DNA of 35,944 bases from an uncultured Terriglobus sp. Lineage in GTDB: Bacteria > Acidobacteriota > Terriglobia > Terriglobales > Acidobacteriaceae. The notes beneath the pieces were generated by a model. The model did no database searches, was not told where the DNA came from, and was given only the letters and a program-made list of their open reading frames with translations. The position numbers and the translations under genes were made by a program. Positions 23,411-24,816 of this stretch are shown piece after piece (within the stretch, counting starts at the first letter, position 1; each line of letters starts with the position of its first letter). The DNA lies in contig CALMRM010000015.1 of assembly GCA_937871605.1 (NCBI GenBank), positions 9,953 through 45,896 of the forward strand. Direction: 5' to 3'.

Positions 23411-23591
23411 CATGCTTACCCGGTCCGGGACAATCGCTATTCGGTCTAGACTGGCTGCATGCGACGGATGGTTCTCGGCCTGTGTCGAGGTGTCCACCTA
23501 TCAAACACTGACGCCAAGACGAATGGTCGCGGATAAACCCTGCACCACACCCTAGGATGCATCGCGCACACCGCGCTATCATCGAATCTGT

Positions 23592-23657
23592 ATGGCGTTC
23601 CTGCACACATCGGTGAGTTCTGCCCGCGCTGCAGCGGCACGCCTCGGCTTTGCCTAG
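23592..23657 (+). CDS. Putative prfA leader peptide (uORF) [21 protein letters not shown] ending in UAG
   Basis: TATCAT -10-like box at 23577-23582; ATG 23592; TAG 23655-23657; anti-SD CCTCCT follows. Confidence 0.5.
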
Positions 23658-23662
23658 CTGCG

Positions 23663-23736
23663 CCTCCTGCGCACGGCTTGCCCTGTTTCACCACTACTCG
23701 ATTCCCGCACCAGCACTGCGCACGTTCGCAGAGGAG
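23663..23736 (+). promoter_or_regulatory. Putative anti-SD/SD helix sequestering the prfA RBS
   Basis: CUCCUGCGCACG (23664-23675) can pair with CGUUCGCAGAGGAG (23723-23736) with one mismatch and a 2-nt bulge. Confidence 0.5.
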
Positions 23737-23742
23737 CACACC

Positions 23743-24816
23743 ATGTTCGACCGCCTGCAACAGCTTGATGACCGCTTTCGTGAGTTGGAAGCCGACCTGG
23801 CCGACCCCAGCATCATCACCGACCAGCAGCGCTTTCAGAAAACCGGCAAGCAGCACCGTGACATGGAGCCGGTGATCGAGCGGTTTCGCGAGTACAAGCA
23901 GGTGCAGGCCGGCATTGCCGATGCCCGGCTGATGCTTGCCGAGGATGATGCGGACATCAAGGCCATGGCGCAGGAAGAACTCTCCACGCTGGAGGCCCGG
24001 CTGCCAGAGATCGAGGAGCAGCTCAAGGTCATGCTGCTGCCCAAAGACCCGAACGACGACAAGAACGTGGTGCTCGAAATTCGTGCGGCCACCGGCGGCG
24101 ACGAGGCAAGCCTGTTTGCGGCGGAGGTCTTCCGCATGTACCTCCGCTATGCGGAACTACACCGCTGGAAGGTGGAAATCCTGTCGGAAACAGAATCCAG
24201 CGTGGGCGGCATGAAGGATGTGACGGCGCTGATTGAAGGCGATCGCGTCTTTTCGCTGCTGAAGTACGAGAGCGGCGTACACCGTGTGCAGCGTGTGCCC
24301 GCCACGGAGACCCAGGGCCGCGTACACACCTCGGCGATCACCGTCGCCGTGCTGCCCGAGGCGGAAGAAGTGGACGTCAAGGTGGAGCAGAAGGACTTGC
24401 GCATTGACACGTTCTGCTCGTCAGGGCCGGGCGGGCAGTCGGTCAACACGACGTACTCCGCGATCCGCATCACGCACTTGCCGACCAATACCGTGGTCAG
24501 TTGCCAGGACGAGAAGTCGCAGATCAAAAACCGCGAAAAAGCGATGCGCGTGTTGCGTTCGCGCCTGTATGAAGTGGAGATGGAGAAGCAGCACCAGGCG
24601 CAGGCCACGGCGCGCAAATCGCAGGTGGGCAGCGGTGATCGCTCTGAGAAGATTCGGACCTACAACTTCCCGCAGAACCGGCTGACGGACCACCGCATCG
24701 GCCTGACCCTGCACCAACTGGAGTACGTGATGGAAGGCAAGCTGCAGCCCATCGTCGATGCACTCATCGCACATGACACCAGTGAACGGCTGAAGGCCGA
24801 GGCCGTCGCGGCATAG
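23743..24816 (+). CDS. prfA: Peptide chain release factor 1
   Basis: RF1-type PAT (PxT) motif in [31 protein letters not shown]; followed by prmC. Confidence 0.98.

Follow-up and report, generated by a model that had tools for sequence, protein, structure and literature searches.

The window analysed here, a 35,944-nucleotide stretch of DNA from an uncultured Terriglobus sp., carries prfA, the gene for release factor 1 (RF1), followed on the same strand by prmC, the gene for the release-factor methyltransferase. RF1 is the sole protein that terminates translation at UAG. The closest named relative of the encoded RF1 is a Terriglobus sp. record (87%), and prmC is likely to be co-regulated with prfA. 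Between a promoter-like sequence and prfA lies a short upstream open reading frame (uORF) that ends in UAG, followed in turn by a predicted hairpin and by a spacer rich in C. The features of the locus, in window coordinates, are as follows.

23559..23563, + strand: GCATC element, likely a promoter element, 13 nt 5' of the -10 box
23572..23582, + strand: extended -10-like box CGCGC-TATCAT (TATCAT at 23577-23582), with a predicted start site at ~23589
23592..23657, + strand: near-leaderless uORF of 21 codons ended by UAG, with an in-frame start just after the -10 box and homologous uORFs elsewhere
23646..23661, + strand: stop context GGC TTT GCC TAG CTGC, conserved across 101 loci
23656..23678, + strand: predicted local hairpin overlapping the stop, with core UGCGC/GCGCA and loop CUCCU, from folding and covariation
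23663..23668, + strand: CCTCCT, proposed earlier as an anti-Shine-Dalgarno (anti-SD) sequence; in the window it is the hairpin's last stem base plus the loop
23674..23726, + strand: C-rich, G-poor, rut-like spacer (22 C and 10 G in 53 nt)
23731..23736, + strand: Shine-Dalgarno (SD) sequence of prfA, GAGGAG, read from the sequence
23743..24816, + strand: prfA, release factor 1, 357 aa, with its ATG at 23743 and Pfam domains PF03462 (PCRF) and PF00472 (RF-1)
24978..25889, + strand: prmC, release-factor methyltransferase, with Pfam domains PF17827 and PF05175

A sequence-only reading of this DNA had placed TATCAT, the uORF, CCTCCT and GAGGAG at these positions, and all four were found there. The -10 box was TATCAT or TATCCT in all 24 loci of the genus, which served as the training list for the box; a consensus promoter scan, which requires a -35, did not call it. 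A GCA[TC]C element lay within 24 nt of the -10 box in 19 of 22 genus loci with a uORF (at exactly 13 nt in 16) and in 14 of 45 other loci.

Upstream of the promoter, a small membrane-protein gene (23190-23410) is interrupted near 23317 by a one-base frameshift. In L022 and L023 the gene reads through without a break (62 aa), and the split marks either a pseudogene or an assembly error. A palindromic interspersed repeat (24836-24950) that folds at -59 kcal/mol separates prfA from prmC. It is REP/MITE-like, with 71 BLAST matches on 37 contigs of the window's own genome, and could affect prmC expression. Both prfA (24814-24816) and prmC (25887-25889) of the window end in TAG, a stop used by prfA in just 4 of 59 loci.

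Conservation of the leader stop and its surroundings

We collected the regions upstream of prfA from 122 genomes of the family. These comprised 76 stand-alone loci, in which neither DUF1385 nor an inserted gene adjoins prfA, 30 loci with DUF1385 adjacent to prfA, and 16 in which a 23S_rRNA_IVP gene separates the two. The leader ORF was chosen by a rule blind to its stop codon, which took the best -10 box (its weights having been chosen by visual inspection of the first loci) and then the first ATG or GTG 4-16 nt later. The ORF obtained in this way ended in TAG in 69 of the 76 stand-alone loci, 67 of them at a conserved motif. When the rule was applied to 19 later-fetched loci (two of 21 had been dropped as duplicates), TAG was obtained in 17, with 15 at the motif position. 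The remaining two frames read from the same starts were TAG-ended in 28 of 152 cases. The stops of neighbouring genes in the same loci varied, with prfA ending in TAA, TGA and TAG in 31, 24 and 4 cases and prmC ending in TAG, TGA and TAA in 13, 13 and 12. The sequence-only reading had staked its proposal on relatives keeping the uORF and its UAG, and relatives do keep a UAG-ended leader ORF that starts after a -10 box.

TAG is the commonest stop in the window's own genome (38% of 2467 roughly called genes), where the context TAG-C[GT]GC was found in 32 of 939 cases. Among 44 ORFs of 8-50 codons that begin with ATG behind a promoter-like box in this genome, the prfA uORF was the only one ending in TAG-C[GTA]G, which places it beyond chance. 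The element as a whole (UAG-ended ORF, hairpin and C-rich spacer) was present in 101 of 106 family loci without an insertion, 11 of the 101 having been recovered through the motif search itself; it was missing from L054, L060, L101, L107 and L109. The uORFs were 11-50 codons long, and of 67 none was shorter than 11 codons and 19 had exactly 11. Two long leader ORFs, in L039 (50 codons) and L031 (34 codons), retain the in-frame end at the UAG and hairpin, and their lengths are consistent with insertions being tolerated only in multiples of three.

The consensus around the stop was GNN NUY SNC UAG CKGC across the 101 loci, with G at -9 in 87%, U at -5 in 90%, C at +4 in 96% and G at +6 in 94%. 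The encoded peptides were variable and showed a pattern only in the last two or three residues. The residue at -2 was hydrophobic (L, F or I) in 90 of 101 loci, and the groups ending in [GD]FA and LL carried synonymous third-position changes.

The G of UAG is the first base of a GC-rich predicted hairpin. In 30-nt folds, the pairing probability of its 5' arm exceeded 0.5 in 95 of 101 loci compared to 502 of 931 TAG stops elsewhere in the window's own genome. Covariation across 54 aligned loci was modest: 82% of cells were paired and three of five pairs had changed on both sides, and a shuffle test gave 9/500 for the former and 65/500 for the latter. Compensatory changes are exemplified by L044, L074 and L111. 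When the whole leader of the window was folded, the local hairpin had a probability of 0.01-0.28, compared to 0.27-0.58 for a competing long-range CUGCG/CGCAG helix. Rfam 15 gave no gathering-score match for window positions 22500-24500 and eight further loci, with one chance-level match elsewhere. No U-tract was found 3' of the hairpin (U 15-43% per position in 44 loci) and a terminator scan of the window called none there, and an intrinsic terminator was therefore ruled out.

The spacer between the UAG and prfA measured 58-218 nt, with a median of 88 nt, and 56 nt in two later-fetched loci. Its C-G skew at +16 to +45 was 0.42, compared to -0.03 in the 3' flank of prfA in the same loci, and was the higher of the two in 56 of 59. 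A comparison with stop flanks of the window's own genome gave 0.39 against -0.01. The spacer is also rich in pyrimidines (Y 0.69 vs 0.47) and poor in A. An SD-like 4-mer was detected in just 58 of 101 leaders. Collectively, these comparisons point to a real cis element that is conserved before prfA throughout the family. They also make it quite probable that the UAG of the leader ORF senses RF1, by whichever route.

Candidate modes of action

We tentatively favour the reading that the leader senses RF1 and attenuates transcription of the prfA-prmC operon through Rho. RNA polymerase would pause at the hairpin until a ribosome arrives at the end of the ORF and unwinds it. When active, PrmC-methylated RF1 is ample, the ribosome would leave the UAG quickly, the C-rich tract would lie bare, and Rho would terminate transcription at or just inside prfA. 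When RF1 is scarce, the ribosome would dwell on the weak UAG-C, or read through it, and with the tract shielded prfA-prmC would be transcribed. Since it would be slow release at UAG-C that shields the rut-like tract, RF1 itself would be the sensed ligand. The peptide would not be the sensor, and any translated ORF that brings a ribosome to the UAG would serve. A C at +4 is described as a weak stop context in the accessible text of PMC5289835.

The window's own genome (G000) encodes rho (TIGR00767 above cut-off). The excess of C over G in the spacer, a shortest spacer of 56-58 nt, the presence of rho and the lack of a U-tract would all suit the Rho route. By analogy, so would the order of the parts, as a pause hairpin over the ORF end followed by a rut is the published layout of speFL and tnaC. 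Against this reading stand the modest covariation of the hairpin, the fact that UAG is the commonest stop of the genome, and the kinship of the genomes compared. At its median length the spacer is short for Rho loading, so termination would compete with ribosome loading on prfA; the spacers of tnaC and speFL, at ~220-250 nt, are longer.

RNA-seq data from a relative (G117) were also inspected. Leader reads were not in excess over prfA reads, a weak comparison given poorly stranded 150-nt reads. In three raw-read runs of one sample, likewise poorly stranded, the sense excess faded at ~2650-2720, near the predicted start at ~2689, and no read-end peak was called in the raw reads of these poorly stranded libraries. 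RNA contigs from one study ended 18-27 nt past the UAG in three of four runs and spanned the uORF in one; such ends are not probative.

The sequence-only reading had proposed a translational switch, in which CCTCCT forms an 11-pair helix with the prfA SD region and is masked by a ribosome on the UAG. The helix can be drawn, with one mismatch and one bulge, and reaches -13.0 kcal/mol alone, but it makes up just 1-6% of the ensemble, and its region shows no folding advantage over shuffles (z 0.84, 0.46 and 0.95). CCTCCT was found within 22 nt past the stop in only 2 of 101 loci and 1 of 24 in the genus. Masking of the ribosome footprint, the check suggested with that proposal, was carried out on 98 of the 101 loci (those with spacers <170 nt) and shifted the cost of opening the ribosome-binding site (RBS) by a median of 0.1 kcal/mol (1.3 in the window). 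Shuffled post-stop segments sequester the RBS as well as the native one does, and the anticipated co-evolution of the helix did not appear, as native post-stop/RBS duplexes were not stronger than swapped ones and ranked at the median in five segments. The duplex of the window falls in the top 4% of swapped pairs; because top-decile ranks are confined to 4 of 101 loci, we regard this as a coincidence of one genome. The prfA RBS is moreover more open than those of typical SD genes in the window's own genome (median 7.7 vs 10.1 kcal/mol; 250 control genes). The anti-SD helix was rejected as a mechanism for the family on the rarity of CCTCCT, the masking, the swapped duplexes and the ensemble share, and is in our view improbable. 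A broader version, in which a ribosome on the UAG frees the prfA RBS from post-stop pairing by either CCUCCU or the CUGCG arm with CGCAG 5' of the SD, seems doubtful. The same duplex, CCTCCT and RBS-openness results stand in its way, the median masking gain is again 0.1 kcal/mol with 10 loci losing more than 1 kcal/mol, and beyond the genus a 5-bp arm complement near the RBS occurs in 21 of 77 loci against 19.9 expected. What keeps it alive is the excess of this complementarity within the genus alone (11 of 24 loci against 5.9 expected, in loci that are kin and not independent); masking also gains more than 1 kcal/mol in 30 of 98 loci, and the CUGCG/CGCAG helix has the probability of 0.27-0.58 given above for the window.

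The same anatomy would fit an RF1-sensing decay of the message, in which fast release bares the pyrimidine-rich, C/U-rich spacer to an endoribonuclease, while a ribosome lingering on the UAG would shelter it. This tract is C-rich and A-poor, unlike the usually A/U-rich sites of RNase E, and the poorly stranded raw reads of G117 gave no called read-end peak; we consider such decay to have a small chance of being correct. The UAG might alternatively be fixed only for the G that it gives to the hairpin, with the leader acting as a general sensor of ribosome release (RF3, RRF, PrmC methylation, antibiotics) or as a constitutive damper. The G of UAG is indeed paired in 46 of 54 aligned loci, and UAG is the only stop with a final G. 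However, TAG is also retained in loci that lack this pairing or have a shifted or missing hairpin (L047, L068, L086, L116, L017, L078 and L119), and the element precedes the one gene whose product reads UAG, so this explanation, while deserving some weight, is unlikely. Readthrough coupling to the prfA start, as in Elliott's hemA model, or a frameshift into the prfA frame is highly improbable: the +1 frame past the UAG is open into prfA in the window, but the UAG-to-ATG distances divide 29/41/31 modulo 3, extension lengths are alike across frames (medians 78, 73 and 77), and in-frame ends lie no closer to the prfA start than those of the other frames. Readthrough coupling and +1 fusion were rejected on these frame counts and the lack of a preferred end point. 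The leader could also be an inert remnant of the DUF1385 3' end, inherited by descent, as the uORF ends DFA and GFA resemble the VIA end of DUF1385 and TAG persists without a hairpin in loci with IVP insertions. This is very improbable, given that frame, start and promoter are kept across changes from 11 to 50 codons while peptide and spacer diverge, that the hairpin shows compensatory changes, and that a second uORF origin occurred with DUF1385 still present.

Relation to known regulatory systems

In the accessible text on tnaC (PMC12360218) and speFL (bioRxiv 10.1101/604074), the rut lies next to the uORF stop and is covered by a ribosome held there; in speFL the pause hairpin covers the ORF end and any stop codon works (bioRxiv 10.1101/604074). 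The prfA leader appears to have the same order of parts, with a C>G tract past the ORF stop and rho in the genome. It differs in that tnaC and speFL sense a metabolite via a conserved arrest peptide, whereas the peptide of the prfA leader varies in sequence and length. Where speFL takes any stop, the prfA leader has an invariant stop, a free peptide and a shorter spacer. By analogy, the prfA leader would therefore resemble both systems in action but lacks the arrest peptide that characterises them. ermCL and topAI are anti-SD translational attenuators with a uORF. They share with the prfA leader a uORF 5' of the regulated gene and, as proposed here, a stalled ribosome as the switch, but the prfA leader has no conserved anti-SD:SD helix.

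The +1 frameshift of prfB, which encodes RF2, is likewise a feedback of a release factor, acting via a stop codon specific to that factor, with C at +4 as a weak context. In contrast, prfA is uninterrupted: it lacks an internal stop and a slippery site, no frame is conserved, and its sensor would lie outside the gene. The prfB motif CTTTGAC was found in 54 of 59 loci, and the five misses have long open upstream frames past the search window. Since the frameshift motif is kept, the prfA leader would add to RF2 feedback, and the idea that it replaces the frameshift, hinted at by uninterrupted HMM matches, was rejected. In the window's own assembly (317 contigs, 98% complete) prfB was not found, likely owing to an assembly gap.

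Elliott (1989), as cited in PMC2680264 and PMC7530605, proposed that hemA ending in UAG-C before prfA in E. coli/Salmonella serves RF1 autocontrol; according to unpublished results mentioned in PMC2680264, hemA readthrough makes little contribution in E. coli. Both arrangements place an ORF ending in UAG-C upstream of prfA. Elliott's model needs readthrough that ends beside the prfA start, whereas the frame is not kept in the prfA leader, whose conserved features are its dedicated uORFs, the hairpin and the C-rich spacer. The accessible parts of PMC8073009, PMC7530605, PMC2680264, PMC12421855, PMC3001078, PMC10798248, PMC12360218, bioRxiv 10.1101/604074, PMC5289835 and PMC11463598 cover the hemA-UAGC idea and its negative test and note that feedback on RF1 is not known. 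No prfA uORF or attenuator was described in the literature searched, which consisted mainly of openly accessible papers. The accessible text of PMC7530605 holds that feedback belongs on the release factor in higher demand. As UAG is the commonest stop in the window's own genome, the leader directly tests this idea.

Origin and exchange of the leader ORF

Where DUF1385 (PF07136) lies directly 5' of prfA, its stop is TAG in 23 of 30 family loci and TGA or TAA in the other seven, five of which have a new TAG-ended uORF between DUF1385 and prfA. DUF1385 was not found in any of 30 uORF-clade genomes searched. The leader ORF thus appears, from gene order and stops, to be interchangeable between DUF1385, a gene of 300+ aa, and a small uORF. 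A quick RF1 tree of 150 residues was used only for two well-supported groups. The stand-alone uORF genomes grouped together (75 rows, support 99), as did those with DUF1385 plus a new uORF (5 rows, support 91), the latter nested among DUF1385 genomes, indicating two separate hand-overs from DUF1385 to a uORF on this tree. The simplest reading is that the stop module was originally the end of DUF1385 and that a small uORF retained or re-created it on two occasions.

Outside the family, DUF1385 adjoins prfA in 35 of 55 Acidobacteriota loci. Among those 35, the spacer was at least 45 nt in 12 of 12 TAG cases (11 with +4C) compared to 5 of 23 TAA/TGA cases. The hairpin and the skew were mostly weak in the non-family loci.

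Together, these results make it probable that the prfA leader represents the first natural RF1 autoregulatory circuit, in which a portable UAG-hairpin-rut module turns the stop of the preceding ORF into an RF1 sensor. The module would have been passed down with the end of DUF1385 and handed over to uORFs at least twice, and RF1 and RF2 would be tuned separately. Such a switch, not described in the literature searched, would likely raise RF1 production when RF1 runs short. If so, it would be an attenuator with a translation factor as its ligand, read via stop identity and with no sensing peptide, and would itself report on UAG termination in vivo, with no further construction needed. The element, at ~150 nt, is assayable by three point changes.

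Bacillota records (L217-L264), mostly Lachnospiraceae, have the order DUF1385-prmC-prfA. In these, the prmC-like ORF before prfA was TAG-ended in 18 of 28 cases, a count that includes two of three mis-hits ending inside prfA (two TAG and one TGA), compared to 1 of 21 for DUF1385 and 7 of 28 for prfA. Beyond the family, too, prfA may as a rule be preceded by a UAG.

Where an IVP gene was inserted after DUF1385, the TAG was kept in 17 of 17 cases, a stop-overlapping hairpin was seen in 5-6, and the C>G skew had mostly faded. The module thus appears dispensable in some lineages, and the TAG of these loci may reflect inertia. The inserted 23S_rRNA_IVP (PF05635) four-helix-bundle genes lie right behind the DUF1385 TAG in L082, L088, L089, L098, L113, L129, L133, L145-L152 and L197, and their insertion is recurrent on the tree (13 changes). 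The insertion may be a mobile or RNA-excised unit. The IVP genes are often flanked by inverted short-repeat arrays, GTCGTTG-like upstream and CAACGAC-like downstream.
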